DNA of 37,576 nucleotides from Candidatus Micrarchaeota archaeon (GTDB lineage Archaea > Micrarchaeota > Micrarchaeia > Micrarchaeales > CABMGC01): assembly GCA_027314465.1 (NCBI GenBank), contig DAHVAU010000004.1, positions 1 through 37,576 on the forward strand, given 5' to 3'. Positions 5,925 to 36,832 of this stretch are shown here, piece by piece. A program made the translations under genes and the position numbers. Within the stretch, counting starts at the first letter, position 1, and each line of letters opens with the position of its first letter. The notes under the pieces are model-generated. The model was not told the DNA's origin. It saw only the letters and a list, made by a program, of their open reading frames with translations, and ran no database searches.

Positions 5925-5929
5925 TACAC

Positions 5930-13098: not shown

Positions 13099-15546
13099 TT
13101 ATACCTTGATCTGCTCAAGGTCCCCGGCGTCGACGAGCTTCACATTCCCGTATCTTATGGCGAGCTTGATAATCTCTGCGTTGTTCCCGTATGACCTGTA
13201 CAGCTTGTCCATGAAGCTTAGCTTCTTCTCCTGGTCAAGGAACACTATGTAGCTCCTGGAGCGCTGGCTTATCTCTATGTCCTTTATCTTGGCAGTGTCT
13301 GAATAGATCTTGATGTAGCTCTGCGTGCCCTTGTTGGTTATTATCATATCGCTCTTAGAGGATGCGTCCATCTCAGTGAACATCATTGCGTTTGCTATGC
13401 AGTAGTCCCTGAGCTTGCGGTATATGACCAGGTAATCTATGCTGTGGCCCGACTGCGCCGCCCATGCCGAAGGCGCATAGTAGTCTCCTGCAGATTCAAC
13501 AAGCCCCTTCTTTATGAGCACATTGAGCAGCGCATAGGTATTTCTCAGCGTTATTGATATGCGCGTGTTCCCGTACTTTATGAAGTTGCTTACCCCCGAG
13601 CGCATCTCCTCAGGGGTGAGCGGCATGAACCTCCAGTGGTAGAATGAATTGACCTTGTCGAACACCGCCACCACTGCGTCAGGGGACTCCATAGCCCTCT
13701 CATGCGTGCTCATCTTTATCTCTGGAACATCTACGAAGTACTGCTCTACGTTGTTAGGCACCAGCACCCTGTTAAGCACTATTATGAACACGAGCGCTAT
13801 TGCAAAGGCTATGTACAGCGGAGGTATGTTCAGACCTGCGCCCTGATACTGGTAGGGCACGTAATAGTTGCTGCCCAGTATCATTATCTCGAATGTGCCG
13901 TTGCCGTGGCTTAGAGCAGCGCCGTTAGGCAGTGAGTACCTGATGTCTCCGCCGGTTATGGTGCCCTGCGAAGCGTATGCCCCACTCACGCTGGCAGTAT
14001 ATGCAGTGCCTGATATTGGCACGCCGTTGCTGTATGCAGTGAACAGGAAGGTGCCGTTATTGAAATTAAGCACTACAGGAGCTATTGTGGCATTTGCTAC
14101 CTGGAACAGTGCTGATGAATATGTCCTGTTCTGCTGGTCGTCCAGCCTGGCTATGTAGTAGCCGCTTGGCAGCTCGAAGGACTGGTATGAGTAGAGCGTA
14201 GATGCCCCCACCTGCCCTATCCTTATTGGGGCCTGCGGCGCAGGCGTGAAGTTCATATCCACAAGGGGCACGTAGGCTATGACAGCGCTGCCGTGCGTTG
14301 AATTGAATACCTGCGTGCTTATCTGGGCCTGCTGCGAGAGGCCGACGACTGGAGGGAGCCCTATCTCTCCGTTCTGCTTCATCCTGATCCTGAACTCTGA
14401 CTCGAACTTGCTTGTGGTGTTGGCATTTGACAGGTTGAGGAATACTAGCGAGTACGAGCTATTTATTATGTCCGACACGCTCGGAGAGTAAGGTATCAGG
14501 GTGTTGAGCGTGAATATCGTGTAGTTGCCCGATGACGACTGCGGCAGAGGCGTGAAGCCGTGAGCTATGAACGGGATCCAGTACCTTGACGCAAGAACGG
14601 TGGCTATGTCTGACGAGAGGTTCAGGGCGCTGTTGTTCCACCCCGCCGAGGGATAGTTGCTCAGGGCTATGAACGTACCGTTGAGCACTGATACAGAAGT
14701 TGCAGAGCCGAACGAGAGGCCAGGCACGAACCTGAACGTGGGCGTGTTTAGTATGAGCCTGTTGTACGTGTAGTTGGAGTTGCTCGTATTGGCGAATCCC
14801 GTGCTGTTGTAGTAGCTCATGTACGGCATCTTCAGCGCTTCTGCAGTAGCATTGCTGTTCTGCGCTATCTGCCCGGTGCATGAGACTGACCTTGACAGAT
14901 TCCTGCCTACGTACAGCACGACATCGCCATTGGAGAGCAGATTTGGCAGTGTTGTGTTTGAGTACCTCTGGCAGCCCTCAGTGTAGGTTACATTAGGGAG
15001 CAGTATGTTGGGCATAAGCCCTGAAGCTATTATGACTATGGATCTCTTGGGTATGGCGTCCATCTGATTTATGTTGATGTAATTGAGGCTCGATGCGTTG
15101 AACAGCAGGCCTGAGTGCGACAGCGTGCTGTTGAGAGTGCTGAACAGCGTTGAGGGGAGGAAGCATTGCACGCAGTAGCTCTCCACGTTTATGACGTATA
15201 TTGGCATCACCGGCTTTGATGTGTACACCGTGAGAGACAGGTTAGCCGCGGCGACATTGTTGCTTGTGTATGCAACACGGGCATACTCCACGAGCTGGTT
15301 CGAGTAGTTGTACGTAAGCGCTCCGTAGTAGTCTGTTGTGAGACCCCCATATATCGGCCCGGATGCGGCCGGAGGCGCGACCTGTATGGCAGCAACTTGC
15401 TGCCCCACGTAGAGCACAAGCAAGGCCATTAGCACTACTGCCACAAGCACTGCAACTATCGCTAGCTTTATCTTTCCGCTCATGCCACTGGCGCTGGGTT
15501 CAGGAGCCATTTCCTGCAGCGCTGACTTGGATGCTCCTACTGTCAT
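13099..15546 (-). CDS. large type-I-like surface glycoprotein candidate: N-terminal anchor/signal, ~520-aa sequon-dense ectodomain, second TM, 216-aa cytoplasmic domain
   Basis: 815-aa ORF. The ATG overlaps the stop of the upstream 49-aa ORF (ATGA).
- First TM: KLAIVAVLVAVVLMALLVLYV.
- Ectodomain: about 24 N-x-S/T sequons by my count (NYS, NLS, NST, NAS, NVT, NTT, NAT, NGT and others).
- Second TM: PPLYIAFAIALVFIIVLNRVLV.
- C-terminal domain: contains a wHTH-like stretch, TLRNTYALLNVLIKKGLVES. Confidence 0.8.
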   Translation of the reverse strand: MTVGASKSALQEMAPEPSASGMSGKIKLAIVAVLVAVVLMALLVLYVGQQVAAIQVAPPAASGPIYGGLTTDYYGALTYNYSNQLVEYARVAYTSNNVAAANLSLTVYTSKPVMPIYVINVESYCVQCFLPSTLFSTLNSTLSHSGLLFNASSLNYININQMDAIPKRSIVIIASGLMPNILLPNVTYTEGCQRYSNTTLPNLLSNGDVVLYVGRNLSRSVSCTGQIAQNSNATAEALKMPYMSYYNSTGFANTSNSNYTYNRLILNTPTFRFVPGLSFGSATSVSVLNGTFIALSNYPSAGWNNSALNLSSDIATVLASRYWIPFIAHGFTPLPQSSSGNYTIFTLNTLIPYSPSVSDIINSSYSLVFLNLSNANTTSKFESEFRIRMKQNGEIGLPPVVGLSQQAQISTQVFNSTHGSAVIAYVPLVDMNFTPAPQAPIRIGQVGASTLYSYQSFELPSGYYIARLDDQQNRTYSSALFQVANATIAPVVLNFNNGTFLFTAYSNGVPISGTAYTASVSGAYASQGTITGGDIRYSLPNGAALSHGNGTFEIMILGSNYYVPYQYQGAGLNIPPLYIAFAIALVFIIVLNRVLVPNNVEQYFVDVPEIKMSTHERAMESPDAVVAVFDKVNSFYHWRFMPLTPEEMRSGVSNFIKYGNTRISITLRNTYALLNVLIKKGLVESAGDYYAPSAWAAQSGHSIDYLVIYRKLRDYCIANAMMFTEMDASSKSDMIITNKGTQSYIKIYSDTAKIKDIEISQRSRSYIVFLDQEKKLSFMDKLYRSYGNNAEIIKLAIRYGNVKLVDAGDLEQIKV

Positions 15547-15692
15547 CTCCCTTCAGCCTCGCCGCCCTTCTTCACAACGTATTTCTGCAGCAGAGACTCT
15601 ACCAGCTTAGAGAATGCGTTCTGGTTTCCTGAGGGCTTCTTCTTTATCGCGTATATCCTTACGTAACTGAACTTCCTGTTTATAGTAGCCAT
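15543..15692 (-). CDS. unannotated 49-aa basic protein (below ORF-track cutoff)
   Basis: Hand translation of the minus strand gives MATINRKFSYVRIYAIKKKPSGNQNAFSKLVESLLQKYVVKKGGEAEGR. It fills the only gap between the 253-aa and 815-aa genes. Its TGA overlaps the ATG of the 815-aa gene (ATGA), which suggests translational coupling. Confidence 0.45.
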   Translation of the reverse strand: MATINRKFSYVRIYAIKKKPSGNQNAFSKLVESLLQKYVVKKGGEAEGR

Positions 15693-15710
15693 GTATGCCA
15701 TTCAAAGCAC

Positions 15711-16472
15711 CTATCCCTTGAGCTCCAGGTATCCCAGTGATACCATCTTATCCAGTATCTGCTCCACCCTTGTTGGAGACACGCCGTGGGACTTGGAGAA
15801 CTCAACTATGTCTATGGAGCTGTTGTGAACGGTTATCCAGTCCTCCACCAGTGCCATGAGCGACTCGTCGCTGTATTTCTGCAGCGATGCAAGCTGGCCT
15901 TTGAGCACCTTGTTCTCTTCCGAGAGCTGCGCTGACTGTATCGTAAGATTCCTGTTTGCAGCAGATACCTCTATCTCAAGCCTCTTTGTCTCCCTGTATT
16001 CGGATAGCAGCGAGTCGTACCTGTTGTACAGTGTGGTGTAGTTCTGCGAGAGGCCTGATAGAAGCCCGTCAAGCACGGAGTCTATGTACTGTATGAACTT
16101 GAGCTGGTCCAGAGAGTACTTGCCGTCAAGAATCGAGACTATGGCGGCTACGCTCTTAAGCACGCTTGCGCGCCGCAGGCTGACGCTGGAATCCGGTATG
16201 ATTGAATATGTGATATCGATGCCGTCGGGCTTTATGCTTATTATGTGGAATAGGTACGGCCTGCGGTTTATGCTCCTGCTCTCCACCTTTATCAGGTCCA
16301 GCCCGGAGTCTGATGACTTGAACAGATAGAACGGCAGGCTCCCCAGTGCCGCCTTAACATCGCCCATTGTGCCATTGAGCTTGCCTGATATCGAGAACTC
16401 CTCAACCTTTGGCTGCGAGACCTGCTGCGATGGGCTGGCGTTCTGTGATGCTGGATCCGGAGCATTAGCCAC
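15711..16472 (-). CDS. cytoplasmic coiled-coil protein with C-terminal winged-helix domain
   Basis: 253-aa ORF with an apparent GTG start. The central heptad region is LLSEYRETKRLEIEVSAANRNLTIQSAQLSEENKVLKGQLASLQ. The C-terminus, IDIVEFSKSHGVSPTRVEQILDKMVSLGYLELKG, is wHTH-like. Confidence 0.7.
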   Translation of the reverse strand: MANAPDPASQNASPSQQVSQPKVEEFSISGKLNGTMGDVKAALGSLPFYLFKSSDSGLDLIKVESRSINRRPYLFHIISIKPDGIDITYSIIPDSSVSLRRASVLKSVAAIVSILDGKYSLDQLKFIQYIDSVLDGLLSGLSQNYTTLYNRYDSLLSEYRETKRLEIEVSAANRNLTIQSAQLSEENKVLKGQLASLQKYSDESLMALVEDWITVHNSSIDIVEFSKSHGVSPTRVEQILDKMVSLGYLELKG

Positions 16473-16486
16473 TATACCACCATACT

Positions 16487-16876
16487 CTATTCATGCTGGC
16501 CATTTTTATAGCCTTTCTTTGTTCCGTGCCTTGGTATCTCCAGCGCAGGAGTGTAATTCAGCAGGGACATTAGGTACATGATCAGGAGCACCACCGCAGC
16601 TATGAGGAACGTTGATATTGAAGGGGCCATGAACAGGCTCAGAATCATGAATATTACTCCAAGCGCAACGTACATTATCTGCCTTGAAGTGTACTTGTCC
16701 CTCCTCTTCCTGTACTGGGCATAGCATGCCCTGCACACCACGAGCCTGCTGCCCTTCTCGTTCTTTGTGACATTTCTCTTGAACAGCCTTATGGCGTCTA
16801 TGATATGGTCGTTGGCGACAGGAAGTCCGTCCCTCCTCTTCCCGCACATTATGCAGTAGCTTGGTTTCGCTGGCAT
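16487..16876 (-). CDS. zinc-ribbon protein with two C-terminal TM helices
   Basis: 129-aa ORF with an ATG start. The zinc ribbon is CIMC...35 residues...CRAC. It is followed by a basic linker (YRKRRDKYTSR) and two hydrophobic helices (IMYVALGVIFMILSLFM and FLIAAVVLLIMYLMSLL). Confidence 0.7.
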   Translation of the reverse strand: MPAKPSYCIMCGKRRDGLPVANDHIIDAIRLFKRNVTKNEKGSRLVVCRACYAQYRKRRDKYTSRQIMYVALGVIFMILSLFMAPSISTFLIAAVVLLIMYLMSLLNYTPALEIPRHGTKKGYKNGQHE

Positions 16877-16880
16877 CTCA

Positions 16881-17186
16881 TCATTCTATTGTAAGCTCCA
16901 CTATCTTTCCGAAGGTGTTCTTTATCCTTTCCTCTTCAAACGCATCCATCACGTTTGAGACGGATACATCGTCTATGCCTATCCTTCGCAGTATGTTTAT
17001 GACATCGCTCTGATGAAGGCCGGTCCTAAGCAGCATGTCCGTGAACATGAGCACGTTGACGTGGCTGTGCATCTTGTCCAGCTGGCCCACTATCTGCTCT
17101 ATGTTCTTCTCCCCGACCTTGAAGCTGGCCAGTAGCTTCTTGAATTCCAGCTTGCTTATCCCCAGCGATCCTGCCAATTCTATCAC
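16881..17186 (-). CDS. small helical protein homologous to the C-terminal module of the upstream ATPase
   Basis: 101-aa ORF whose GTG start overlaps the ATPase stop (GTGA). FKKLLASFKV..IEQIVGQLDKMHSHVNVLMFTDMLLRTGLHQSDVINILRRIGIDDVSVSNVMDAF aligns with the ATPase residues FEKLLLTSKF..IIDAVFKQLDARTRLVDLKEFVKILISERMTKEAIVSLLRAIGISDNIISRAF. Confidence 0.65.
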   Translation of the reverse strand: MIELAGSLGISKLEFKKLLASFKVGEKNIEQIVGQLDKMHSHVNVLMFTDMLLRTGLHQSDVINILRRIGIDDVSVSNVMDAFEEERIKNTFGKIVELTIE

Positions 17187-18688
17187 TCACTATATACAAA
17201 AGCCCTGCTTATTATGTTGTCCGATATGCCTATGGCCCTGAGCAGGGACACTATGGCCTCCTTGGTCATCCTCTCGCTGATCAGTATCTTGACGAACTCC
17301 TTGAGGTCCACGAGCCTTGTCCTTGCATCGAGCTGCTTGAACACTGCATCTATTATATCGTTGTTTATGCTGCTCTCTATGAACTTCGACGTGAGCAGCA
17401 GCTTCTCGAACGAGTACTCCTTTTGCAGGGTCTGGTCCCTGTTCTCCGATTCCGAGAGCAGGTCTGCCAGCGTTATTGTGTACACATCAAGAGGCACCTC
17501 TCCAACAACCCTGTTGAGTATGAACGTTGATGGGAACTGCGCAGAGGTCTGAAACGACATGTCTATTGCGGCTTCGCCAACCCCAAGCTTGCTTATCTCC
17601 GACCTTATGAACGGAGAGAAGTTGAGCGACCCTTGTATGTAGTCCATGAACTTCTGGAACTTTATCCTGAGTATTATGTTGGTGCCTACGTTTGAGAATA
17701 TGGCCTCGTTGATATCCGTTGGGTTCTGCGAAGCGACTATTAGGCCGAACTGGTACTTCCTTCCCTCCCTTACTATCGTGATCGCATCGCTCCTGTCATC
17801 GCTGGCCACCTTCCACGCCTCGTCCAGCACTATTATTGCCTTGAGGCCCTTTACTGCGCTCCATCCCTCGGATCTCATCTTCTCCTTGAGCGTCTGGAGC
17901 ATGAACAGCGCAGCAAGCGCCCTGAACCTCTCGTCAGGCAGGCCCGACAGATCGAGGTCCACGAGCCCTGATGATATGAGCTTGTCGAGATCTATGGTGC
18001 TCTTCCTGGCGAAGTAGTCCTCGCCCTCCCTTGAGAACTGCCTGAGCCTGTATATCGCATTCTCGAGCTCCGCAGGATACTCGTAGGTGCCTTCCTGGAG
18101 CTTCTCCTCCAGCAGCTTTGCAACGTCCTTGAGCGTCGGCGCAGGCCTGTTGCCAGTAGGCAGGCTTGAGAGTATGAAGCCTGCATTGAGGTACGCCTGC
18201 TCCACGGCCTCCGCCGTGAGCCTTCGCTGCTCAGGGAACCCGGTTATGTCGGTGAGTATGTCAAGCGAGTTCATTATCTGCTTTGACCTGTCTATCGGCT
18301 TCATGCCAGCAAGGTCCATCAGGTTTATGTAGTCGCCCTTTGCCAGCGATATTATGGTGCCGCCGCTCTGCTTGACCCAGCCCCTGTACTCCCCGGCCCA
18401 GTCTATTATTATGGCGTTAGTCCCCCACACGTAGCTTGCGCGCGTCAGGAACGTCTTTACGAAGAAGCTCTTTCCTGACCCTGTTATTCCCACCACAGAT
18501 ATATGCGGGTTTGTGAGGTTGTTGAACGTCCAGGTGAACGGCACGCCGAACCTCTTTGTTATGCCCACGAATATTGAATCCGTGGGGTCGTTGAGCAGGA
18601 ACTCTGGCGGCGGCTCTGGAGGCCTTGATAGGAAGGTTCTCTTGGCCAGTTCGTTGCTCATCAGTTTTTGCATCTTTATTAGTCCCAT
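17183..18688 (-). CDS. VirB4/TraC/CedB-like ATPase of the HerA-FtsK superfamily (DUF87/AAA_10-type), short form lacking a VirB4 N-terminal domain
   Basis: - Walker A: VVGITGSGKSFFVKT (nt ~18467-18490).
- NAIIIDWAGEY and INLMD.
- Walker B: AIIVLDEAWK.
- Arg-finger/sensor block: REGRKYQFGLIVASQNPTD.
The gene is embedded in a membrane-protein operon. I took ATG 18688 as the start; a TTG at 18709 (the ORF-track start) would overlap the upstream gene. Confidence 0.85.
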   Translation of the reverse strand: MGLIKMQKLMSNELAKRTFLSRPPEPPPEFLLNDPTDSIFVGITKRFGVPFTWTFNNLTNPHISVVGITGSGKSFFVKTFLTRASYVWGTNAIIIDWAGEYRGWVKQSGGTIISLAKGDYINLMDLAGMKPIDRSKQIMNSLDILTDITGFPEQRRLTAEAVEQAYLNAGFILSSLPTGNRPAPTLKDVAKLLEEKLQEGTYEYPAELENAIYRLRQFSREGEDYFARKSTIDLDKLISSGLVDLDLSGLPDERFRALAALFMLQTLKEKMRSEGWSAVKGLKAIIVLDEAWKVASDDRSDAITIVREGRKYQFGLIVASQNPTDINEAIFSNVGTNIILRIKFQKFMDYIQGSLNFSPFIRSEISKLGVGEAAIDMSFQTSAQFPSTFILNRVVGEVPLDVYTITLADLLSESENRDQTLQKEYSFEKLLLTSKFIESSINNDIIDAVFKQLDARTRLVDLKEFVKILISERMTKEAIVSLLRAIGISDNIISRAFVYSE

Positions 18689-18692
18689 ATGA

Positions 18693-19514
18693 TCACTTCT
18701 GTTGGTCAAACTCCGAAGACAGCTCGCCGATGCTAGGTACCCTGTAATTGAAGTTGTGCACCAGGTACATCTCCCTGCCCATTATGCGGGCTATGCTCAG
18801 GTCGAATATGTTGAATACCGTGGAGAGCTCGTTGAGCTGGTTTGTGAGCCTGTCCATCGCCTCTTTCTGGCTCACGCCTACCGCAGTACTCTCTATATAC
18901 ATTATGCTGTTGACCGGTCTTTCCCCTTCACCTATCCTGTCTATCCTTGCCTGTATCACATTTATCTGCCTCTGTATTGTCTCAAGGCCCATTGGATTGG
19001 GGTTGCTTCCCTGTGTCTCCTTAGAGTACTGGAACTCCAGAAGGCCGCGTTTGGCCTCAAGCTCCTCCCTGTAGTGCTGCACCTCCTCGGCAACGGCCAC
19101 TATGTTGAACTTGAACGGGAAGTGTATGTTCATTATGGCCTTCTCCCACTTGTCAGGCGCAGCTGCCAGGGCCATGTCCTCTTCCTGCACCTGCTCCTGC
19201 GCGAATATGTAGTTGTAGATGTTTGCTGTTAGGTATCCTGTCGCATAGTATATGCCGTTGGAGTACTTTATTATTGCATCCTGGCTCTTTGGTATTATGT
19301 AGCCCTTTGAAGGCACTATGACTATATTGAGCAGCTTTGTGAATGCGGGGAATATCAGGAAGTCTGCGAAGGCTATGAGCAGTATGAGGCCCAGGGAGAC
19401 GAACCCGAAGACAACTATTATTAGCCCGACTACGCCGTACTTGACACCGTTGACTATTACTAGCAGAACTACCAGCACTGAGAGGGCTATGTGTATTATC
19501 GTCTTCTCGTCCAT
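18693..19514 (-). CDS. membrane-anchored protein (N-terminal TM hairpin plus ~190-aa soluble domain), paralog of the 19519-20346 product
   Basis: 273-aa ORF with an ATG start. The TM region is IHIALSVLVVLLVIV...VVGLIIVVFGFVSLGLILLIAF. With the upstream gene it shares the blocks SNGIYYATGYL, FPFKFNIV and GVSQKEAMDRLTNQLNEL, and the ending RVPSIGEL. Confidence 0.75.
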   Translation of the reverse strand: MDEKTIIHIALSVLVVLLVIVNGVKYGVVGLIIVVFGFVSLGLILLIAFADFLIFPAFTKLLNIVIVPSKGYIIPKSQDAIIKYSNGIYYATGYLTANIYNYIFAQEQVQEEDMALAAAPDKWEKAIMNIHFPFKFNIVAVAEEVQHYREELEAKRGLLEFQYSKETQGSNPNPMGLETIQRQINVIQARIDRIGEGERPVNSIMYIESTAVGVSQKEAMDRLTNQLNELSTVFNIFDLSIARIMGREMYLVHNFNYRVPSIGELSSEFDQQK

Positions 19515-19518
19515 CCCA

Positions 19519-20346
19519 TCACATCATGTTCTGCGTCTGCTGGTTCTGCGAGTACCTCATGAGCTCGCTTATGGTCGTAGGCGGTATCATGTATTCAGGC
19601 TCCACCAGCACAAGCATGTCCGCCCCAGTTACCACTGATGCGCTCACCCCCACAGTTGCACTTATTCCTGCTGCAACCTCATCGGCCTTGAGCGATATCA
19701 TGTTCATCGCCTCTTCCTCTGTGCCTCCGAATACGGTGACTGCCGCATACACATCAAGGGCCTGCGAGTTTGCCTTTGAGACGCTGTCAAGCAGGTTGTG
19801 CCACATCGTCACCTCCCCCTTTATCCTGTCGAGCTGGGGCTTGCTGGCGTTCTTGTCAAGTTGTATGGCGTTGTACCTGGCCTCGGCCTCGTTTAGCCTG
19901 GAAGTCACCCTGGCTATGTAATCGTCTTTGTTTATGGAGTAGAGCTGCGAGGTCACCTTTATCGGGGTCTTGCTTATGCTTACCATCCTTGAGAACACAT
20001 TGGAGAAGTTGAACTTCTGTTCGTCATTCATCTCGGTGGACGAACTGTACACAGGCACCTTGATGAATGATGTCGCGTATATGAGGTTGTCCTTCCTTAC
20101 CAGTATCGCGTTGCCGTTCTGCGACATGTAGAAGGCATCGTCTGGATCTAGCACCACGCTGCCGCTCTTGGATCGCAGCACAGGCGCATACAGGTAGTAG
20201 TAGTACCTGGTCGCGAATGCCAGCACAGCGGCAATAAGCGCTATGATGGCTAAGAGTAGAGCCACCGGGCTCAGGCTGGCTGGAGGCAACCCAGTAAGCG
20301 TTGCAAAAACGAAACCAACCGCAGCGATGACAATGAAGATTACCAT
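19519..20346 (-). CDS. membrane-anchored protein (N-terminal TM hairpin plus ~200-aa soluble domain), paralog of the 18693-19514 product
   Basis: ATG 20346 (MVIFIVIAAVGF...); the ORF-track TTG is at 20367. There are two TM helices. The shared blocks are QNGNAILVRKDNLIYATSFI, TPIKVTSQL and GGTEEEAMNMISLKADEV, ending in MIPPTTISEL. Confidence 0.75.
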   Translation of the reverse strand: MVIFIVIAAVGFVFATLTGLPPASLSPVALLLAIIALIAAVLAFATRYYYYLYAPVLRSKSGSVVLDPDDAFYMSQNGNAILVRKDNLIYATSFIKVPVYSSSTEMNDEQKFNFSNVFSRMVSISKTPIKVTSQLYSINKDDYIARVTSRLNEAEARYNAIQLDKNASKPQLDRIKGEVTMWHNLLDSVSKANSQALDVYAAVTVFGGTEEEAMNMISLKADEVAAGISATVGVSASVVTGADMLVLVEPEYMIPPTTISELMRYSQNQQTQNMM

Positions 20347-20377
20347 TTCTTGATTGCTGCTGGGCAACTGACCACTG

Positions 20378-22922: not shown

Positions 22923-24023
22923 CTAGACAAGTGTGCGCAGCCTTCCCGAGGTCTTTGCCATCCCCCCCAGTATCTCGGCTATCTGGGTCACCAGCGCATA
23001 TGTGAGAGCTATGATAAGCGCTGGGAAGAACAGTATGGAGAGCCAGAATGCCCCGAAAGTGCTCTGTAGCTGCCCTATGGTCGATACGAGAGGGGCGCTG
23101 GCTGACAGGGAATTGTCTATGAGGCCGCTTGGGGATGCGCCATATCTGTTGAGCGCAGTCTGCGATTGCGAGAGCTGCGTGTAGATGTTGGTCGATGTGT
23201 AGTAGTATGCTATCGAGAACAGGGTAGGCATTATAAAGTAGAATCCTATGGCCATGGCTATCATCATGCCGCCCAGGTTGCGCGTAGGTATCAGAGCCCT
23301 GAATATGATTCCAGGCACAAGGAATACAGGTATTGCGGCGTACATGAAGAATATTATCAGGTAGAACTGCGTGTACAGCGACAGCATCGCCTCGAACATG
23401 AACGCCACCACGACCCATGACGGCCAGAAGAACAGGTACTGGAAGGCGAGAGCCCACACCGGCGGTATGGTAGGGAAGTTGAATCCGCCAACTTCGCCCT
23501 CGAGCTTGAAGCTGGTGTAGCTGTAACCCAGGGTGCCAAGGTAGAAGACGTGGGATGCAGTGGTGTATGTTGTGTTCAGAGTGGTTGCTATGTAAGTAAG
23601 CGATGCATCAAACGGATTGATCGGGCCTGCAGTAACTGCCGGGAGTATGCCGAACATGACAGCGCTTATGAACACGAACAGTATCGCCATCATTGCCGTT
23701 GCTGTGGCCTCGTACAGCTCTCCTGTGCCAAACGTCCTGAGCCTGTCGTTTCTGAACGCCACTCCGAACATGAATAGGACAGCCGCTATTGAATAGGAGA
23801 ACATCACAGCGACCATCATCAGCGGGAAGTACTTGTGCCATTCGCTTATTATTGAGGGATTTATGTACTTGCAGTACCACGGAGCCACATTCTCTACTAT
23901 TCCTCCGGCAGCAGGATTTCCACAGTACTGGCTAAGTATGCCCTGCGCGTGCAATAGGCCGGTTATGCAGAGCACCGCTACAAACGCAATGGCCAGGGCG
24001 AATGTTATCCTCTTTGGCATCAT
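22923..24023 (-). CDS. polytopic membrane protein, paralog 6 of a six-member tandem family (VirB6/TrbL/CedA-like role hypothesised)
   Basis: 366-aa ORF whose ATGATG start overlaps the upstream stop by 4 nt. It has a signal-like N-terminus (ITFALAIAFVAVLCITGLLHAQG) and about 7 or more TM segments. The family signature is GIIFRALIPTRNLGGMMIAMAIGFYFIMP. Confidence 0.8.
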   Translation of the reverse strand: MMPKRITFALAIAFVAVLCITGLLHAQGILSQYCGNPAAGGIVENVAPWYCKYINPSIISEWHKYFPLMMVAVMFSYSIAAVLFMFGVAFRNDRLRTFGTGELYEATATAMMAILFVFISAVMFGILPAVTAGPINPFDASLTYIATTLNTTYTTASHVFYLGTLGYSYTSFKLEGEVGGFNFPTIPPVWALAFQYLFFWPSWVVVAFMFEAMLSLYTQFYLIIFFMYAAIPVFLVPGIIFRALIPTRNLGGMMIAMAIGFYFIMPTLFSIAYYYTSTNIYTQLSQSQTALNRYGASPSGLIDNSLSASAPLVSTIGQLQSTFGAFWLSILFFPALIIALTYALVTQIAEILGGMAKTSGRLRTLV

Positions 24024-25117
24024 AGTATCCTCGTTAATATCGAAAACAGGTCCATCCTCTCCCCTATGGACCTGGAGAAGTCGACTATGAAGGCGTCGAC
24101 CACCACCAGATTGAGGAGCGGTATGAATACTAACCCTGCTCCTATAAATCCAGCATACATGATCAGTGGAGCAAATATCTTGCTGAACACTGCATTAGTA
24201 TAATTAAGCGGATTGACTATATTCAATAGAGACTGCACGAGGAAGTTCCCAAGGGTGTCAAGCGGCACGGCTACCCCGCTGGTGGCGCCGCCTATGGCCG
24301 CATGCGCTATTGCAGAGTCAAGGAATCCGTACGTAAGGCCCACCATCAACGGATACACAACGCCTATGCCCAGGCCGAAGGCTATCATAGCCCCGCCGAA
24401 GCTTTTGGTGACCCCGAAAGACCTTGCTATAAGACCTATTATGATGAATGCGCTGAACAGGAGCATTGATGAGCTTATCAGGTACTGCTGCAGCAAGGAG
24501 GCGATGGAAAGCGCGTAGTATACCTGCATGTAAGGTATGATGTATTGGTGAACGAACACTATCGGGAGCAGCTGTATGGTGAAGCTGATGCCTATTCCGC
24601 CGTAGCCTAGATTTACCGGTATTGCCGGCGCTATGCCCCCTGCAAGCGAGAACCAGAACAGGGAGGTGCTGAACTGGGCAAGATCCGTATTGTATTGGTA
24701 CATGTCGCATGTTGCCACGCCGAAGATATCTGCTACGTTTGACGGCGATGGAGTTGCGCCTGCGTTGGCAGGATTGCATGCCTGCGGCAGCAATCCTATC
24801 GAATTCAGGGGCGTCACAGGATTGACGCATATGAGCATTGTGGAGAAGCTCACGAAGATTATCGCGAATACTATAGTGACCAGTCCGTCGTATATCTTGG
24901 CCCTTGCCCATACCTTCATGTCATTTCTTCCGAGCGCAGGGGAGAGCATGTAGAACAGCGCTGCAATGCCTATTATGACAGAGACGGCCATTAGCACTAT
25001 GGGGAACCATACATTGGGAGTGGCGGAGAAGAAGCTGACCACATTGTTGGTGTATCCCCCTCCAGCGAATGGGCACACTGCAAGTTGCAGCATCCATGGA
25101 ATTATAACTTCTAGCAT
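24020..25117 (-). CDS. polytopic membrane protein, paralog 5 of the tandem family
   Basis: 365-aa ORF with an ATG start 1 nt after the upstream stop. The family signature is GLIARSFGVTKSFGGAMIAFGLGIGVVYP. Cys-containing predicted external loops include QACNPANAG and ATCDMY. Confidence 0.8.
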   Translation of the reverse strand: MLEVIIPWMLQLAVCPFAGGGYTNNVVSFFSATPNVWFPIVLMAVSVIIGIAALFYMLSPALGRNDMKVWARAKIYDGLVTIVFAIIFVSFSTMLICVNPVTPLNSIGLLPQACNPANAGATPSPSNVADIFGVATCDMYQYNTDLAQFSTSLFWFSLAGGIAPAIPVNLGYGGIGISFTIQLLPIVFVHQYIIPYMQVYYALSIASLLQQYLISSSMLLFSAFIIIGLIARSFGVTKSFGGAMIAFGLGIGVVYPLMVGLTYGFLDSAIAHAAIGGATSGVAVPLDTLGNFLVQSLLNIVNPLNYTNAVFSKIFAPLIMYAGFIGAGLVFIPLLNLVVVDAFIVDFSRSIGERMDLFSILTRIL

Positions 25118-25118
25118 A

Positions 25119-26300
25119 TCACACCACCCTTCCGAGCATCCTGGCGCCCTGCAGCGAAGGCGCCCCTAGTATTGTTCCCAGCTTCTCTACCATCTCGTAT
25201 GATACTATTAGCGAGATTATTAATCCGATTAGGTCTATGCCTATGAACTGCAGTCCCTGGATAAATGCGAATACGTTCTCGTAGTATACCTCGCCGAAAT
25301 TGTAATCCATCAGGCCCAGTATCTCCTTGCCTGACGTGGTCAGGAAGCTCCCTGAATTGCACAGGCTTGAGAACGTAGTGTTGAACGTGCTGGAGTCGCA
25401 AAAGCCCTTGCCGCTAAGGCCGTGCCCGGTCACTCCGAGGAACGGGAACATCAATGCCGGGAATATCAGGTAAAACGATATGAACAGCGCTATAAGCGAT
25501 CCTCCGGCAGGCCGCGTCCATGGGAAGGAGCGCAGCACTATGCCAAGGTAGAGGAACAGTGGGAATAGGTAGTATATGGTGAACAGTATCACTATGATGA
25601 ACATGCCCATGAACATGCCCCCGAAGTAGATCGTCTGCTCGTCCCATAGCAGCTGTATTAGCAGCGCGATTCCCTGGAACGGATCGAACGCCACGCCGAA
25701 GTTGTTTGGCATTATGGAGATCCTGAATCCCCCTGTCGGAGGCGATGAGGTGGCGAATGCATTGGCTACCATAAGATTCACGTATATGCCAAACCAGTTC
25801 TCCAGACTGGACGTTATCACATTTGTGTTTATGTCATTGCACAGATTCACATACATGGTGTTTATGCTGCCTGTGCCTGACGAAGCCGATCCCACACCTG
25901 TTGAGGATGTCGCTATGTTGGAGAAGAAGGACAGCGATGCAGGGGCGAATGCCATGGCTGTGCCTATGACGGCTATTATGGCGAGATTGCCCCCTGCTTC
26001 TACCATCTCGGCCTTGCTGAAATTGATAAGCTGGTCCAGATGGAATGCTGTGCCTATTGCGTATGTGACGCCAACTATCGAGAGCATTGCTAGTATTATC
26101 AGCACTGCGATGGTAAGCATCGAGCTGCCGAGCGATGAGATGCCGGTTCCGGGGCTTGTTATTGCGGCAAGATTGCCCGCTGGGGACAGTGAGGCTGATG
26201 AAGAGAAGAAGTTGTTGCAGTTCACTACTGATATGGCGTTTGACGCGCCGATGAGCACGGCGAAAGCCAGGAGCGTTAGTGCAAATTGCCTGTATCCCAT
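25119..26300 (-). CDS. polytopic membrane protein, paralog 4 of the tandem family
   Basis: 393-aa ORF with an ATG start and a signal-like N-terminus (FALTLLAFAVLIGASNAIS). The family signature is GIVLRSFPWTRPAGGSLIALFISFYLIFP. Confidence 0.8.
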   Translation of the reverse strand: MGYRQFALTLLAFAVLIGASNAISVVNCNNFFSSSASLSPAGNLAAITSPGTGISSLGSSMLTIAVLIILAMLSIVGVTYAIGTAFHLDQLINFSKAEMVEAGGNLAIIAVIGTAMAFAPASLSFFSNIATSSTGVGSASSGTGSINTMYVNLCNDINTNVITSSLENWFGIYVNLMVANAFATSSPPTGGFRISIMPNNFGVAFDPFQGIALLIQLLWDEQTIYFGGMFMGMFIIVILFTIYYLFPLFLYLGIVLRSFPWTRPAGGSLIALFISFYLIFPALMFPFLGVTGHGLSGKGFCDSSTFNTTFSSLCNSGSFLTTSGKEILGLMDYNFGEVYYENVFAFIQGLQFIGIDLIGLIISLIVSYEMVEKLGTILGAPSLQGARMLGRVV

Positions 26301-26310
26301 CTAATCCAAC

Positions 26311-27948
26311 TCATATGAACCTGCTCAGCCCTATGATGGTGGTCTCTCCCCCCATCAGCGAAGAGATCCCCACCATTGCCGATATCATCATCAATACGTT
26401 TATTATAGGAATTATGAACGCCGACACCGCTATAATTCCATACATATTTGCCAGGGCACTAAGCGCCGCGGCTATGTTGTACGGGCCTATCCTGGCCACG
26501 CATGCGCCATTGTTTGCAGTAAGCAGGCCCAGAGGCGACGACAGCGGAGATATTCCGGTGAAGAACGACAGTATGAAAGTTACCGGCAGTGATATCTCCT
26601 GCACTAGAGTCTGCGCAAGCGCCTCTGACTCAAAAGGCCATATCGTAGTGGCGCCAGCCTGGATGTTACATGAGTACAGATTGATAACGTCGCCTGCGTA
26701 TGGATACACGTAGAAGTTTATGTTGCGCTTCACGTAGCATGTAGCCGCAGTGCTGAATGGATTCCCCCCGCTGATGAAAGGCTGCTCGCCCTGCGATACG
26801 CTTGAGCACGCATTTAGAGTGGTGGCAGTTCCTTTTGCAGGGGTCAGACCCTTAAGTATGTAGCTGGTCTTGAGCGAATCGGCGCTAGTGTAGCAGTACA
26901 GCACGTTGTTACCAGCGCTGTTCGCAAGCTGCCCGAAGCCGCACAGCGATACTGCAGGTATGGAGCTTGCCCCTATGAACGAGTTGGGGTTGAGGTTGCT
27001 GAGCGATGAATATTCGAAGAGGAACACCGTAGGGTATATCACTACAGCGACCACTGTCGCTGCAATCAGTAGTCCCCCTATTCTCCTCGTGAAGGGTATG
27101 GTGCGCAGCACTATTCCTCCTGCAAGCAGGTACGGCCATCCCATAAGCACTATCAGGATGAGCACCATCTGTATGACGAACATATACAGGGCTATTGTGC
27201 CCTCAGTGGTTATGGCAGGCATTATCGCCCTCTGCAGCACGTAGCCGCCGTAGGGATTATATGAGAGCTTCAGTGTGGGCACAACGTCAGGAACCGGGAG
27301 GTCGCACTCCGCAGGTATGCACACAACTATGAAAGGCCGCAGGTTCCTGAGAAAGAACAGCAGGCTGTCGAAGTTGTACAGCGAGTTCAGCTCCATTGCC
27401 GACTGATTGCTCATGTTTGCGAACACAACGTACGTAGAGGCGAGTCCGTAGTCAATCTGCCTTGTGACTGGAGTGACTCCTGCATTGCTGTCTATCAGGT
27501 ACTTGCATACGGCAGTGGTAGGCCCTGGCAGGTTCTGGGCGTTGTCCTGGTATACGCTATTGAAAGTGCTTATCTGCGAGTTCGGAAGTATGTTGTTGCA
27601 TATATTGTTTATCTGTGATGTGCCCCCGCTTCCAAGTATGCTGGAGAAGCTTATGCTGGAGCTTGTGCCTATGAGAAAGAAGAACCATACTAGCAGCACT
27701 ACGATGAGTATGCTTGCGCCGGCGTGCTGCAGCTCCGATATGGCGCTGGCCTTCACCCTGTTATTGTTTAGGAGCCACCCTATCATATAGTATATCGAGG
27801 CCAACAGCACGGCCAGTGTGGAGGCTATGATTATGACAGGTATCCAGTTGTTGAATACATTATAGTTCGTGGCTATGCTCGACTGCGCGCCTGCGGCTGA
27901 TGAGAGGACCAACGCAGCTGCAATTGCGAATGCTATCGTAAGTCTCAT
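26311..27948 (-). CDS. polytopic membrane protein, paralog 3 (largest, with an expanded Cys-rich external region)
   Basis: 545-aa ORF whose ATG overlaps the upstream stop (ATGA). It has a signal-like N-terminus (LTIAFAIAAALVLSSAAGAQS). The family signature is GIVLRTIPFTRRIGGLLIAATVVAVVIYP. There are many Cys residues in predicted loops. Confidence 0.8.
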   Translation of the reverse strand: MRLTIAFAIAAALVLSSAAGAQSSIATNYNVFNNWIPVIIIASTLAVLLASIYYMIGWLLNNNRVKASAISELQHAGASILIVVLLVWFFFLIGTSSSISFSSILGSGGTSQINNICNNILPNSQISTFNSVYQDNAQNLPGPTTAVCKYLIDSNAGVTPVTRQIDYGLASTYVVFANMSNQSAMELNSLYNFDSLLFFLRNLRPFIVVCIPAECDLPVPDVVPTLKLSYNPYGGYVLQRAIMPAITTEGTIALYMFVIQMVLILIVLMGWPYLLAGGIVLRTIPFTRRIGGLLIAATVVAVVIYPTVFLFEYSSLSNLNPNSFIGASSIPAVSLCGFGQLANSAGNNVLYCYTSADSLKTSYILKGLTPAKGTATTLNACSSVSQGEQPFISGGNPFSTAATCYVKRNINFYVYPYAGDVINLYSCNIQAGATTIWPFESEALAQTLVQEISLPVTFILSFFTGISPLSSPLGLLTANNGACVARIGPYNIAAALSALANMYGIIAVSAFIIPIINVLMMISAMVGISSLMGGETTIIGLSRFI

Positions 27949-29171
27949 ACGTTACCCCAGAATGGCCCCACGGCCATCATCCTGTTTACCGAATTCAGTC
28001 CCTTGGTAAGCCCTTGCGCAAAGGCCAGCACTATTGCAAGGTCAATGCCTATCATAACTATGCCCTCGAAAAGGTACTCCGCAGTCTTTATTCCAAAGTC
28101 TATGGTTACCCCTGGCACATTGAACAAAGTACTGAACATCAGGGTTATTCCTTGCGAAAGCCCTCCTTCTGAAGAGAACGCCCCTGAGAGGAATGACGTG
28201 GTCAGCGGTATGCCGCTAAGTAGGCCGCTCCCGGTGTTGAAGCTCTGCGGCTGCGAGTTGAAGAAGTTGCTTGCCGGAGAGGCCCCAAGCTGGTAGGGGA
28301 ACGTGTACTGGTTGTATGGGTTGCACACCTGCCCTGCAACAGTGCACGGAGTGTTTATCCACGTTACAACGTAGGTATTGAACAGTATGGCAAGAGGCAG
28401 TATGAAGTAGAATCCTATGGCAAGGGCTAGGAATGTGTCTGACGACTCTCTGAGCTTGGGCCCGGCGAAAGGTATTGAGCGCATTGCTATGGCTACTGGG
28501 ACTACAATAGTCAGCGCAGTAGTCTGTATTAATGAGAGCAGCAGGTACACAACGAATATCACTCCGAAAGACACGATTATTAAGGGCGTGAAGGCCGCCA
28601 CCAGAGCGCCGCTGAATCCGTAGTATATGGTGAACAGTTCGGTACCAAGCTCCACGTGCAGGAAAGCAGAGAGATATGTATTCACTATCTCATCTACAGC
28701 GGAGCCGAGGTTTCCTGCTATTGTTATGAGTACCGATTCTGAGTATATCTGCTGGAATAGCGACAGCCCTTTTGAGAACATCAGATTGCCAAGGTAGAGC
28801 TGCGCAAACTGCATCGGGTCCTGGTATGTGGCATGCAGCACAGGAGCCGCAGATGCAGTAAGAGATGAGCCTACCTGACATGTTGTCGCTGCTATTGCGA
28901 TGAGTATTATGACTATGATTATGGCTATGACGCCCTGGAAGGCCTCGTACTTCGCCGCGCCCTTCATCTTCTCGCGCATGGAAACAGGAAATATGTTGGC
29001 GAACGAGTATACCGCTGCGGATATCATGAACGATGCAAGTACGATAAGCAGGTTTATCTGGATCCAGGAATTTGTGTTGAGCGTGCCGCTAGCCCCGGTG
29101 GTGCCACCGAAAGTGCAGGCCTGCAGGTAGGGATTCTGCGCAGCAGCAAGTACCATTGGTAGGATGTTCAT
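27945..29171 (-). CDS. polytopic membrane protein, paralog 2 of the tandem family
   Basis: 408-aa ORF whose ATG shares 1 nt with the upstream stop (TGATG). It carries a divergent form of the signature, AIAMRSIPFAGPKLRESSDTFLALAIGFYFILP. Confidence 0.8.
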   Translation of the reverse strand: MNILPMVLAAAQNPYLQACTFGGTTGASGTLNTNSWIQINLLIVLASFMISAAVYSFANIFPVSMREKMKGAAKYEAFQGVIAIIIVIILIAIAATTCQVGSSLTASAAPVLHATYQDPMQFAQLYLGNLMFSKGLSLFQQIYSESVLITIAGNLGSAVDEIVNTYLSAFLHVELGTELFTIYYGFSGALVAAFTPLIIVSFGVIFVVYLLLSLIQTTALTIVVPVAIAMRSIPFAGPKLRESSDTFLALAIGFYFILPLAILFNTYVVTWINTPCTVAGQVCNPYNQYTFPYQLGASPASNFFNSQPQSFNTGSGLLSGIPLTTSFLSGAFSSEGGLSQGITLMFSTLFNVPGVTIDFGIKTAEYLFEGIVMIGIDLAIVLAFAQGLTKGLNSVNRMMAVGPFWGNV

Positions 29172-30561: not shown

Positions 30562-31299
30562 TCAGTGCCTAAGCAACCTGAACCTGTCCATGTACGCCTG
30601 AGCCTGGAAGATGACGAAATACGGAACTACGAGCAGGGAGTTTATGATCAGCGCTATGTACCTTGACCAGAGGGTGCCGAACAAGCCTATGCACGCCACA
30701 TCCACAAGAGACACTATGACTGTAGCAAGCACAAGCCATATGATGAAGTACTGCGGCTCGTGGAGCACAAGCCTCAGGCTGTCAACAACCGCCCGTGACG
30801 CCTTCTTGTTGTCTACAACTATTGCGCTGGGAGCATAGAATATCACAAGGAAGAGCACAAAACCAACGACGGCTGTTAGCAGCGTCGATATCCCAAGTGC
30901 ATACCCAACCATGCTAGCTACCATGAGTATCAGAGTGTATACAAGCAGGACGGCGAACACCTTCCATATGTACTTCTCAAGATCCTCGAATACCCTCTTG
31001 CCAACTGACGAGTGAGTCCTCTTTGACTTGACCAGCAGGCTTATCAGCACAAAGGCGAAGCTTAGGAACAGAAGGGAGAATATAGTCGATGCTGTGATCA
31101 CTGCAAGGCTCACCAGGTCTATGTTCCCGTTCGCGAATATGCTTGCGCTCCTAAGGAATATGGCTCCGGCGCTTATGTAGGTTGGAAGCGGGGCGAGCAA
31201 TGGTATCGCGAAGGCTATCACGAATGGTATGGAGAATATTATGGCTAGGCCTATCCTCTCCCTGTAGACATTCCAGGATTCCCTTATCACACCTGCCAA
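30562..31299 (-). CDS. six-TM integral membrane protein, unknown function
   Basis: 245-aa ORF with no ATG near its 5' end (TTG 31299 or GTG 31290). It has six evenly spaced hydrophobic helices and no recognisable catalytic motif. Confidence 0.65.
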   Translation of the reverse strand: MAGVIRESWNVYRERIGLAIIFSIPFVIAFAIPLLAPLPTYISAGAIFLRSASIFANGNIDLVSLAVITASTIFSLLFLSFAFVLISLLVKSKRTHSSVGKRVFEDLEKYIWKVFAVLLVYTLILMVASMVGYALGISTLLTAVVGFVLFLVIFYAPSAIVVDNKKASRAVVDSLRLVLHEPQYFIIWLVLATVIVSLVDVACIGLFGTLWSRYIALIINSLLVVPYFVIFQAQAYMDRFRLLRH

Positions 31300-35248: not shown

Positions 35249-35312
35249 TTCGCTTTGGACTTAGGGCATATGTGGCTGTGCACCAGGCTGCGCGCGTGAG
35301 GATTGGTTCTTG

Positions 35313-36824: not shown

Positions 36825-36832
36825 ACAAAAGG

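Follow-up and report, generated by a model that had tools for sequence, protein, structure and literature searches.

A probable split VirB4-type ATPase with a duplicated N-terminal module in a conserved operon of Micrarchaeota

Gene layout of the locus

The stretch of DNA analysed here (the window, 37,576 nucleotides (nt) of contig DAHVAU010000004.1) comes from a Micrarchaeota archaeon, a member of the DPANN archaea. It carries three neighbouring genes, encoding two membrane-anchored proteins named N1 and N2 and an ATPase of the P-loop type. We propose that this triad is probably a VirB4-type ATPase of type IV secretion, split into separately translated modules, with the N-terminal module being duplicated. 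All three open reading frames (ORFs) are present in the ORF listing and are co-directional on the minus strand (Table 1). N1 and N2 are separated by 4 nt, and another 4 nt lie between the stop codon of N2 and the ATG of the ATPase gene at position 18688, so that both junctions are as the initial annotation described them. The longest ORF of the ATPase opens at a TTG codon. Since the ATPase orthologs uniformly begin with MGLIK.Q, the ATG at 18688 is most likely the true start.

The triad sits within an operon of 18 minus-strand genes, in which the intergenic spacing ranges from -4 to +116 nt in the window. The operon is opened by the gene m120 and closed by the gene S815, and housekeeping genes (CDC48, eIF2-gamma and topoisomerase VI) lie in its flanks in the window. 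The guanine-cytosine (GC) content is flat across the region.

The ATPase

The ATPase had initially been annotated as a protein of about 500 aa with the hallmark motifs of P-loop ATPases. It is 501 aa long, and these motifs are conserved, or nearly so, across 67 orthologs (residues of the motifs are numbered from the ATG at 18673, which gives 496 aa; five have to be added for the 501-aa protein). The Walker A motif GITGSGKS (residues 62-69) is invariant or nearly invariant apart from its fifth residue, which is Ala in about 70% of the orthologs. In the Walker B motif V-LDEAW (IIVLDEAW in the window, residues 280-287) the last six residues are invariant, and the segment REGRKYQFGLIVASQNP (residues 302-318) is conserved in at least 90% of the orthologs at each position. 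The protein begins with a highly conserved leader of about 60 aa (residues 1-60, PPEPPPEFLLNDP) and ends with a less conserved helical domain of about 80 residues. No transmembrane segment was predicted in it by hydropathy.

Several ATPase families of one superfamily were matched. The Pfam matches were DUF87 ('HerA central domain', E 3.8e-15), P-loop_TraG (3.3e-13) and AAA_10 (3.1e-12), and the NCBIfam matches were CedD (7.6e-22), TraC (2e-19), CedB (2.8e-15) and VirB4 (5.9e-10). All of the NCBIfam scores fall far under the curated cut-offs: 77.7 bits for CedD NF053655 (cut-off 600), 69 bits for TraC (cut-off 567), 56 bits for CedB NF041017 (cut-off 700), 38 bits for VirB4 TIGR00929 (cut-off 643) and 55-58 bits for the HerA models (cut-offs 800-970). 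Among solved structures, the ATPase sequence matched 4d2i (HerA) and 4ag5 (the C-terminal domain of VirB4).

The families differ in what is covered. The HerA models of NCBIfam cover only residues 247-382 of the ATPase (about 135 residues), whereas the VirB4-type models span the whole ATPase core, and do so through the C-terminal part of each model only. The aligned model positions are 423-737 of 800 for TraC, 421-711 of 792 for VirB4, 411-672 of 752 for CD1110, 251-571 of 590 for CedB and 223-512 of 527 for CedD; over all alignments of VirB4-type models to the full ATPase core, the starting positions in the models range from 223 to 511. When the profile of the 67 orthologs was aligned by hhalign to TrwK, the VirB4 protein of plasmid R388, residues 41-348 of the ATPase corresponded to TrwK residues 420-725. 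The N-terminal domain of TrwK comprises residues 15-400 according to the cryo-electron microscopy study of the R388 system (PMC9259494), and the aligned stretch begins directly after it. The Walker A motif lies only about 65 residues from the N-terminus of the ATPase, and the Pfam scan gave no match to PF03135. Because the family models and TrwK align only from their C-terminal parts, the N-terminal domain of VirB4, about 400 aa long, is absent from this ATPase, in agreement with the initial annotation. From these comparisons the ATPase appears to be the catalytic (C-terminal, RecA-like) domain of VirB4 only, within the HerA/VirB4/FtsK superfamily.

Two paralogous membrane-anchored proteins

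N1 and N2 are similar to each other by BLASTP (E 4e-4, 17% identity over 210 colinear residues), and their ortholog alignments matched by hhalign with a probability of 96.1% (E 2.9e-9, 247 columns). The motif pairs by which the paralogy had been recognised initially fall in aligned columns. At the sequence level N1 and N2 are thus true paralogs, pointing to an ancient duplication. Homologs of N1 were found in Micrarchaeota only, and the 172 homologs of N2 are likewise all from Micrarchaeota.

Each of the two proteins had been described as an N-terminal transmembrane hairpin followed by a soluble domain. By hydropathy there are two N-terminal hydrophobic helices in N1, and those of N2 are merged into one peak. 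AlphaFold2 models were built on the ortholog alignments, with a mean predicted local distance difference test (pLDDT) value of 78.5 for N1 and 77.8 for N2. They show long N-terminal helices, two in N1, which form a hairpin, and three in N2. After these helices, both models continue into a domain of mixed alpha/beta type, some 200 residues long, which contains four or five strands as well as long helices, and neither protein contains a P-loop. N-glycosylation sequons are few (none in N2 and two in N1, versus 24 in S815, the surface protein of the same operon), which is consistent with the soluble domains being cytoplasmic, beside the ATPase.

Sequence searches did not link these two proteins, hereafter called N-modules, to any known family. 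Neither N1 nor N2 matched Pfam or NCBIfam at default thresholds; permissive scans (E up to 10) over all members of the two families gave no link to known families, and the family profiles matched none of the PDB sequences. VirB3 was not matched either (PF05101, the permissive Pfam scan included, or the NCBIfam VirB3 model). The 'VirB3' part of N1 and N2 is a topological resemblance only, i.e., a two-helix membrane hairpin placed ahead of a domain resembling the VirB4 N-terminal domain.

In search of a fused ancestor, a merged N-module profile was compared with 1.84 billion representative proteins and matched 202 clusters. Among the 150 clusters listed, nearly every one is a standalone protein of 237-287 aa or a shorter fragment. 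One match of 466 aa was examined as a possible fusion and discarded. It consists of a membrane-protein fragment joined to an N-module, and is probably an assembly frameshift; on the same contig the ATPase is called in two pieces (66 + 416 aa).

Fold-level match to VirB4

The models of N1 and N2 were compared by Foldseek with 350,542 PDB chains, and the top 50 matches of each were examined. For the N1 model, TrwK/VirB4 of R388 takes each of the first 14 places (E from 6.8e-4 to 3.5e-2, with probabilities of 0.94-1.00) over about 173 aligned columns, and the next match, an unrelated one, has an E-value of 0.3. For the N2 model, TrwK/VirB4 appears at ranks 2-4, 7 and 10 (E 0.3-0.8, with probabilities of 0.87, 0.60 and 0.47). 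The structure 4ag5, which contains the C-terminal domain of VirB4 only, is absent from both lists, as are HerA, FtsK, VirD4 and other P-loop ATPases. Because of this absence, and because the N-modules have no P-loop, the matched part should be the N-terminal domain of TrwK, although the aligned TrwK residues are not reported in the Foldseek output.

The initial annotation had suggested that N1 and N2 supply the missing VirB4 module in trans. At the level of predicted folds this suggestion gains support from the TrwK matches; at the level of sequences and profiles no such link was found.

Conservation of the operon and its compact relatives

More than 1100 homologs of the ATPase were found, the best 120 of which are 70-87% identical to it. 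Nearly all the named ones among the best come from Candidatus Micrarchaeota metagenome-assembled genomes, on contigs of up to 853 kb. When one genome per GTDB species was scanned, relatives of N2 were found in 152 genomes, and the best 80 loci were then searched by tblastn with every protein of the window to establish synteny. The gene order is almost invariant, namely M621-M245-M424-M408-M545-M393-M365-M366-(L811, variable)-N1-N2-ATPase-h101-z129-c253-s52-S815, and the gene for topoisomerase VI subunit B comes on the opposite strand after the S815 end of the block. In essentially all of the 80 species-level Micrarchaeota loci, N1, N2 and the ATPase gene are adjacent. With 66-84% identity across the loci, the ATPase is among the most conserved proteins of the operon, followed by N2 (47-72%), N1 (38-66%) and the polytopic M proteins (26-66%). 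As the gene order and the topoisomerase VI neighbour are conserved in about 80 genomes, the operon belongs to the chromosomal core throughout the phylum and is not a mobile element.

Three other readings of the locus were tried and rejected. A viral origin was discarded on the absence of relatives among IMG/VR viral contigs, and a mobile element on the conserved synteny. For a defence system, the partner proteins gave no significant PADLOC match; the only matches were generic P-loop ones to HerA and DndH.

In one Micrarchaeota contig (OY969902, 853 kb, from which two of the loci, L001 and L082, were taken), the operon is broken between N2 and the ATPase gene. The half with the ATPase is found at a distance of about 140 kb, immediately after a gene for a DDE transposase; this is a natural split mediated by an insertion sequence. 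A few homologs carry unexpected names: two contigs with the operon (DATJMH010000008.1 and JAKBPE010000008.1) are binned as 'Candidatus Saccharimonadales bacterium' and 'bacterium', respectively, and one ATPase homolog is named 'Candidatus Aquilonibacter sp.'. These names are probably binning or labelling errors.

Two distant relatives, loci L083 and L084, are compact. In L083, the first gene encodes a 126-aa protein matching TrbC (1.4e-5) and T4SS_pilin (2.6e-5), and the second a 359-aa polytopic protein related to the M proteins of the window (hhalign 98.1%). They are followed by a single N-module, with hhalign probabilities of 98.0% to the N2 family and 93.8% to the N1 family, and by a 444-aa ATPase which is 26% identical to that of the window. 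L084 is similar, and has in addition homologs of h101, c253 and S815. Since the N-module and the ATPase are side by side in both, their adjacency has been kept over a very large evolutionary distance. The compact form, which has a single pilin, M protein, N-module and ATPase, and the expanded form of the window together document the stepwise duplication of a minimal system.

The compact cluster of L083 ends with a 751-aa P-loop protein (13905-16160) with weak matches to Zot, HerA_C and TrwB, which might be an analogue of a coupling protein. It is flanked by toxin-antitoxin genes (ParE, HepT/MNT and PIN/RHH), from which it follows that the compact versions may sit on mobile or variable islands, unlike the core operon of Micrarchaeota.

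Other members of the operon

The remaining genes of the operon are listed together with the triad in Table 1. Directly behind the ATPase, h101 resembles the C-terminal helical domain of that protein (BLASTP to residues 422-485, E 7e-4; hhalign to residues 417-494, 95.9%, E 5.7e-9) and is syntenic in nearly all loci. The ATPase gene is thus flanked on either side by detached 'domain' genes, N2 and N1 on one side and h101 on the other. z129 gave weak Pfam matches to treble-clef families and DUF7649, has a hydrophobic peak at residues 87-105, and keeps its position in the operon. c253 gave weak Pfam matches to EAP30, PCI and DUF5817_CT; its syntenic orthologs are 46-76% identical.

Table 1. Genes of the Micrarchaeota operon, with alternative starts of N1 and the ATPase
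Gene	Position	Strand	Length (aa)	Features
S815	13099-15546	-	815	Surface protein; adjoins topoisomerase VI subunit B, position conserved
s52	15543-15701	-	52	Basic; found by tblastn at the same position in most loci
c253	15711-16472	-	253	Soluble; predicted to be coiled coil-rich; winged-helix-like C-terminus
z129	16487-16876	-	129	Cys-rich, zinc-ribbon-like N-terminus (CxxC...CxxC); C-terminal hydrophobic membrane-spanning region
h101	16881-17186	-	101	4-nt overlap with the ATPase stop; free-standing copy of the ATPase C-terminal helical domain
ATPase	17183-18688	-	501	From ATG at 18688
ATPase, longest ORF	17183-18709	-	508	From TTG
N2	18693-19514	-	273	
N1	19519-20346	-	275	From ATG, start as in the annotated identical protein
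N1, alternative start	19519-20367	-	282	TTG ORF
L811	20436-22871	-	811	N-terminal membrane helix; basic Ala/Gly-rich low-complexity region; C-terminal LRV repeats
M366	22923-24023	-	366	Polytopic membrane protein
M365	24020-25117	-	365	Polytopic membrane protein
M393	25119-26300	-	393	Polytopic membrane protein
M545	26311-27948	-	545	Polytopic membrane protein
M408	27945-29171	-	408	Polytopic membrane protein
M424	29171-30445	-	424	Polytopic membrane protein
M245	30562-31299	-	245	Membrane protein, 6 predicted helices
M621	31343-33208	-	621	Membrane protein, about 12 predicted helices; same position wherever the flank reaches
m120	33236-33598	-	120	Signal peptide; two hydrophobic helices with a short basic loop between; candidate VirB2/TrbC-type pilin

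Hydropathy divides S815 into an N-terminal membrane helix, an ectodomain of about 530 aa, a second helix (residues 578-596) and a cytoplasmic tail of about 220 aa; its 24 N-glycosylation sequons are the total for the protein. The C-terminal part should be cytoplasmic, and S815 could take part in transmembrane signalling. L811, which matches Pfam LRV (1.3e-8), was detected at its position in only a minority of the loci; some others have it at a different place within the locus. Among the operon members, it alone is often missing or relocated in other Micrarchaeota.

Six consecutive M genes (22923-30445) encode proteins with 6-8 predicted membrane helices each, and these proteins are mutually homologous (all 15 hhalign pairs at 94.7-99.5%; BLASTP E-values down to 7e-8). 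They share the motif IPVFLIPG..R...PTR.LGG and match no known family. In the operon they occupy the position that VirB6, CedA and TedA have in related systems. Their number, six, equals that expected for an ATPase hexamer, hinting at a hetero-hexameric ring. M245 is unrelated to them (hhalign below 1%), and its syntenic orthologs are 45-64% identical. At the head of the operon, m120 matched Pfam TrbC/VirB2 with an E-value of 1.9e-4 (22 bits, profile positions 8-97 of 98). It is similar to the pilin-like genes found in both compact clusters, L083 and L084, and its BLASTP E-value with the 126-aa protein of L083 is 3e-5.

Interpretation and alternative explanations

The analysis supports an ATPase that is VirB4-like and consists of the catalytic domain only, two membrane-anchored paralogs with a VirB4-like predicted fold, and a strict and ancient linkage of their genes. 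On these grounds we regard a VirB4-type ATPase split into separately translated modules, one of them duplicated, as the probable nature of the triad. Because the pilin candidates match TrbC/VirB2 and T4SS_pilin, and because the gene order of L083 resembles that of the Ced and Ted loci, we consider the operon a probable descendant of a type IV secretion system, most readily understood as a domesticated and expanded relative of the archaeal Ced and Ted systems for DNA exchange.

Several observations weigh against a split VirB4. Homology between the N-modules and the VirB4 N-terminal domain is suggested by the predicted folds only, and our confidence is limited for this reason. The TM-scores between the N1 and N2 models and TrwK are low (0.26-0.34), the root-mean-square deviations amount to 7-11 Å, and the matches of N2 to TrwK start at an E-value of 0.3. 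The N-modules show no sequence or profile similarity to TrwK, PF03135, PF11130, CedB/CedD, VirB3 or any PDB chain. Three N-module alignments were also compared by hhalign with an alignment of TrwK-like N-terminal domains and gave probabilities below 1%, which is weak evidence since that alignment is shallow (13 metagenome sequences). A fused N-module-ATPase protein was not found among the 150 listed of the 202 matched clusters. Furthermore, the scores place the ATPase at about the same distance from the CedD, TraC and HerA models, far below every curated cut-off, so that its affiliation with VirB4 is phylogenetically tentative. The match of m120 to the pilin family is under the Pfam cut-off (22 versus 27.9 bits), and the six M paralogs have no VirB6/TrbL similarity detectable by hhalign against TrwI, by the PDB profile search or by the permissive Pfam scan.

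The same observations could be accommodated by a different explanation, in which the ATPase is the HerA/FtsK-superfamily pump of a novel membrane complex of Micrarchaeota unrelated to type IV secretion. N1 and N2 would then be lineage-specific adaptors, and their resemblance to the VirB4 N-terminal domain would be convergent or an artefact of models of medium confidence. It would fit the lack of any sequence link between N1, N2 and the six M paralogs and a type IV secretion component, the low TM-scores, the sub-threshold pilin match of m120 and the similar scores of the ATPase with HerA and VirB4-type models. We nevertheless consider it unlikely. Two independently modelled paralogs both pick TrwK/VirB4 out of 350,542 chains, and TrwK fills the top 14 of the N1 list with E-values about 10- to 470-fold better than that of the first unrelated match. 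The VirB4-type models cover the whole ATPase core and the HerA models only a part of it; the pilin candidates of two independent clusters match TrbC/T4SS_pilin. In addition, the order of pilin, polytopic protein, N-module and ATPase in L083 mirrors that of minimal type IV secretion, Ced and Ted loci (PMC9905601).

The initial annotation had offered as an alternative that N1 and N2 are bitopic scaffold proteins of a type IV secretion system, like VirB8 or PrgL. They are indeed membrane-anchored, of about the right size and encoded beside a VirB4-like ATPase. However, VirB8, TraM, TcpC and PrgL, of which many structures are in the PDB, are absent from the top 50 Foldseek matches of either model, and this alternative was rejected on that account. 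Moreover, there is more than one membrane helix per protein instead of a single one, and the even number in the hairpin of N1 places both termini on the same side of the membrane. The N1/N2 domain largely lacks the N-glycosylation sequons abundant in exposed proteins of the same organism, and PF04335 was not matched even at E up to 10. A VirB8-like role is thus very improbable.

Equally little credit can be given to the ATPase being a HerA helicase for DNA end resection (HerA-NurA-Mre11-Rad50) or a HerA-type component of anti-phage defence. DUF87 (3.8e-15), solved HerA structures and the HerA models of PADLOC were matched, yet coverage by the HerA models is confined to the C-terminal half of the core or to a pair of short segments. 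The N-terminal HAS-barrel of HerA is not matched, and the short distance between the start and the Walker A motif leaves no room for one. No NurA, Mre11, Rad50, SIR2 or DUF4297 partner is encoded in the window or in any syntenic locus, and all the neighbours of the ATPase are membrane proteins.

HerA/VirB4-like ATPases are also hallmarks of archaeal mobile elements (PMC4158269), and L083 has its toxin-antitoxin flanks and its second P-loop protein of 751 aa, but it is hardly conceivable that the region is an integrated conjugative element, a plasmid or a provirus with its own transfer or packaging ATPase: the order and the topoisomerase VI subunit B neighbour are shared by about 80 species-level genomes, among which the ATPase keeps 66-84% identity as a core gene would, the GC content is flat, IMG/VR holds no relatives, no integrase or capsid gene was found in the window, and the scanned ORFs of the window included neither a relaxase nor a coupling protein.

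With regard to complex formation, stoichiometry, substrate and direction of transport, we infer the following arrangement for a split VirB4. The catalytic domain would work as a hexamer, by analogy with members of the HerA/VirB4/FtsK superfamily. In each N-module, two membrane helices arranged as a hairpin would be joined to an alpha/beta domain that lies in the cytoplasm and folds like the N-terminal domain of VirB4. Jointly, N1 and N2 would anchor the ATPase hexamer at the membrane and connect it with the channel proteins there, thereby taking the roles of VirB3 plus the VirB4 N-terminal domain. The conserved leader of the ATPase (residues 1-60) is the likely docking segment. A heterodimer of N1 and N2 is plausible as the docking unit, because VirB4 subunits of R388 dimerise purely through their N-terminal domains. 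The triad would then act as the motor of the 18-gene operon, which host-dependent cells may use for the cell-to-cell transfer of DNA or other macromolecules, so the operon could be a candidate for a cell-to-cell transfer machine of Micrarchaeota. Since Ced and Ted import DNA and Micrarchaeota are host-dependent, transfer between symbiont and host seems, by analogy, the most attractive function.

A more elaborate version, which we put forward as speculative and doubtful, would have the ATPase hexamer docked by N1-N2 heterodimers, mimicking the central and outside VirB4 pair of R388, beneath a ring of the six M paralogs as VirB6-like proteins, one per subunit. Such a conduit might take DNA, nucleotides or other macromolecules from Thermoplasmatales hosts, and might be the archaeal counterpart of the essential system of Patescibacteria.

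Comparison with known systems

The closest parallel in R388 is the pair of VirB3 and VirB4 (TrwM and TrwK): the ATPase aligns with TrwK 420-725, and the predicted folds of the N1 and N2 domains match TrwK. In that system the two membrane helices of VirB3 wrap the N-terminal domain of VirB4, and the central and outside VirB4 subunits dimerise exclusively through their N-terminal domains (PMC9259494). Natural fusions of VirB3 and VirB4 occur in bacteria, and in these, as in the N-modules, a two-helix hairpin stands ahead of the N-terminal domain or its likeness (PMC12102498). Unlike VirB3 and VirB4, the putative N-terminal domain and the catalytic domain of Micrarchaeota are separate polypeptides, the N-module is duplicated, and its sequence shows no detectable similarity to either PF03135 or PF05101. 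In addition, an extra C-terminal helical domain is present in the ATPase and is encoded a second time as the separate gene h101. VirB5, VirB7-B11, VirD4 and a relaxase were not found at the Micrarchaeota locus.

The Ced system of Sulfolobales (CedA, CedA1, CedA2, CedB and CedD/CedE) is chromosomal, domesticated, type-IV-secretion-like and without a relaxase, as is the operon described here, and among its components are a VirB2-like pilin and a channel protein of polytopic type (PMC9905601). CedD is also the best-scoring NCBIfam model of the Micrarchaeota ATPase (7.6e-22). In CedB and CedD, the N-terminal domains each superpose on a different portion of that of VirB4, so that a VirB4-like N-terminal domain is distributed over two gene products (PMC11868833). 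The initial annotation had called the architecture unusual for an archaeal system; this judgement overlooked the precedent of CedB and CedD, which the locus would extend by a further case of archaea partitioning the VirB4 N-terminal domain among gene products. The difference is that the N-terminal parts of CedB and CedD stay fused to their own ATPase domains, whereas Micrarchaeota have one ATPase without an N-terminal domain and two N-modules without an ATPase. Furthermore, there are six candidate channel-protein paralogs in Micrarchaeota versus one or two channel proteins in Ced, the phylum is a different one (DPANN), and the ATPase scores far below the CedB and CedD cut-offs (56 versus 700 and 78 versus 600 bits).

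The Ted system of Thermoproteales (TedA, TedB and TedC) is a chromosomal set of a pilin, a VirB6-like membrane protein and a VirB4-like ATPase (PMC9905601), and the compact relatives L083 and L084 follow the same logic of a minimal set. TedB, in contrast to the triad, is a VirB4-like ATPase encoded by one gene (PMC9905601), and the HerA, Rad50 and ParA genes of Ted loci are absent from the Micrarchaeota operon. Sequence similarity to the Ted components was not found, no comparison aimed at it having been made.

The Patescibacteria (Candidate Phyla Radiation) have a chromosomal, type-IV-secretion-like system in the reduced genomes of an ultrasmall, host-dependent lineage, and its components are essential for epibiotic growth in one cultivated member (PMC12102498). 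The operon parallels this retained and essential system of equally reduced cells. Unlike the operon, the system is bacterial and belongs to the MPF-FATA class of monoderm conjugation systems; its VirB4 is conventional and of full length, VirB3/PrgI is a separate protein, and no split or fusion is reported for it. Among DPANN archaea, the giant SPEARE proteins of nanohaloarchaea carry a VirB4/TraG-like domain and have a VirB4 gene adjacent to them, and a role in host interaction has been proposed (PMC10266531). Here, too, VirB4-type ATPases are tied to large surface proteins, which shows that VirB4-type motors recur in DPANN host-interaction loci (PMC10266531). In SPEARE the ATPase domain is fused to a giant surface protein with Ig repeats and the neighbouring VirB4 retains PF03135, whereas in Micrarchaeota the ATPase is free and its N-terminal domain apparently detached.

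Full-text literature searches found no description of this Micrarchaeota operon, and no report of a VirB4 with its N-terminal domain as a separate, duplicated gene was found in the literature. [quoted passage not shown] For the physical exchange of material between DPANN archaea and their hosts, the operon offers a concrete candidate apparatus conserved throughout the phylum, and two co-culture systems are available for testing it. A naturally split VirB4 would also provide a genetic and structural handle on the poorly understood N-terminal domain of VirB4.

Genes beside the operon

Divergent from the operon, the plus strand at 34076-37438 carries genes for a 390-aa coiled-coil protein and a FlaI/PilB-type ATPase, and a 201-aa ORF. 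The FlaI/PilB-type ATPase matched T2SSE (1.1e-32) and the archaellum FlaI model (5e-73, below the cut-off of that model), and the region is probably a type IV pilus locus. The Ced system requires Ups pili, and the adjacency of the pilus locus to the operon may for this reason be functional.

At the other end of the window, a NUDIX ORF (5484-5924, plus strand) overlaps the eIF2-gamma ORF (5831-7141, plus strand, GTG start) by 94 nt as listed. The true start of eIF2-gamma is probably further downstream than the listed GTG.

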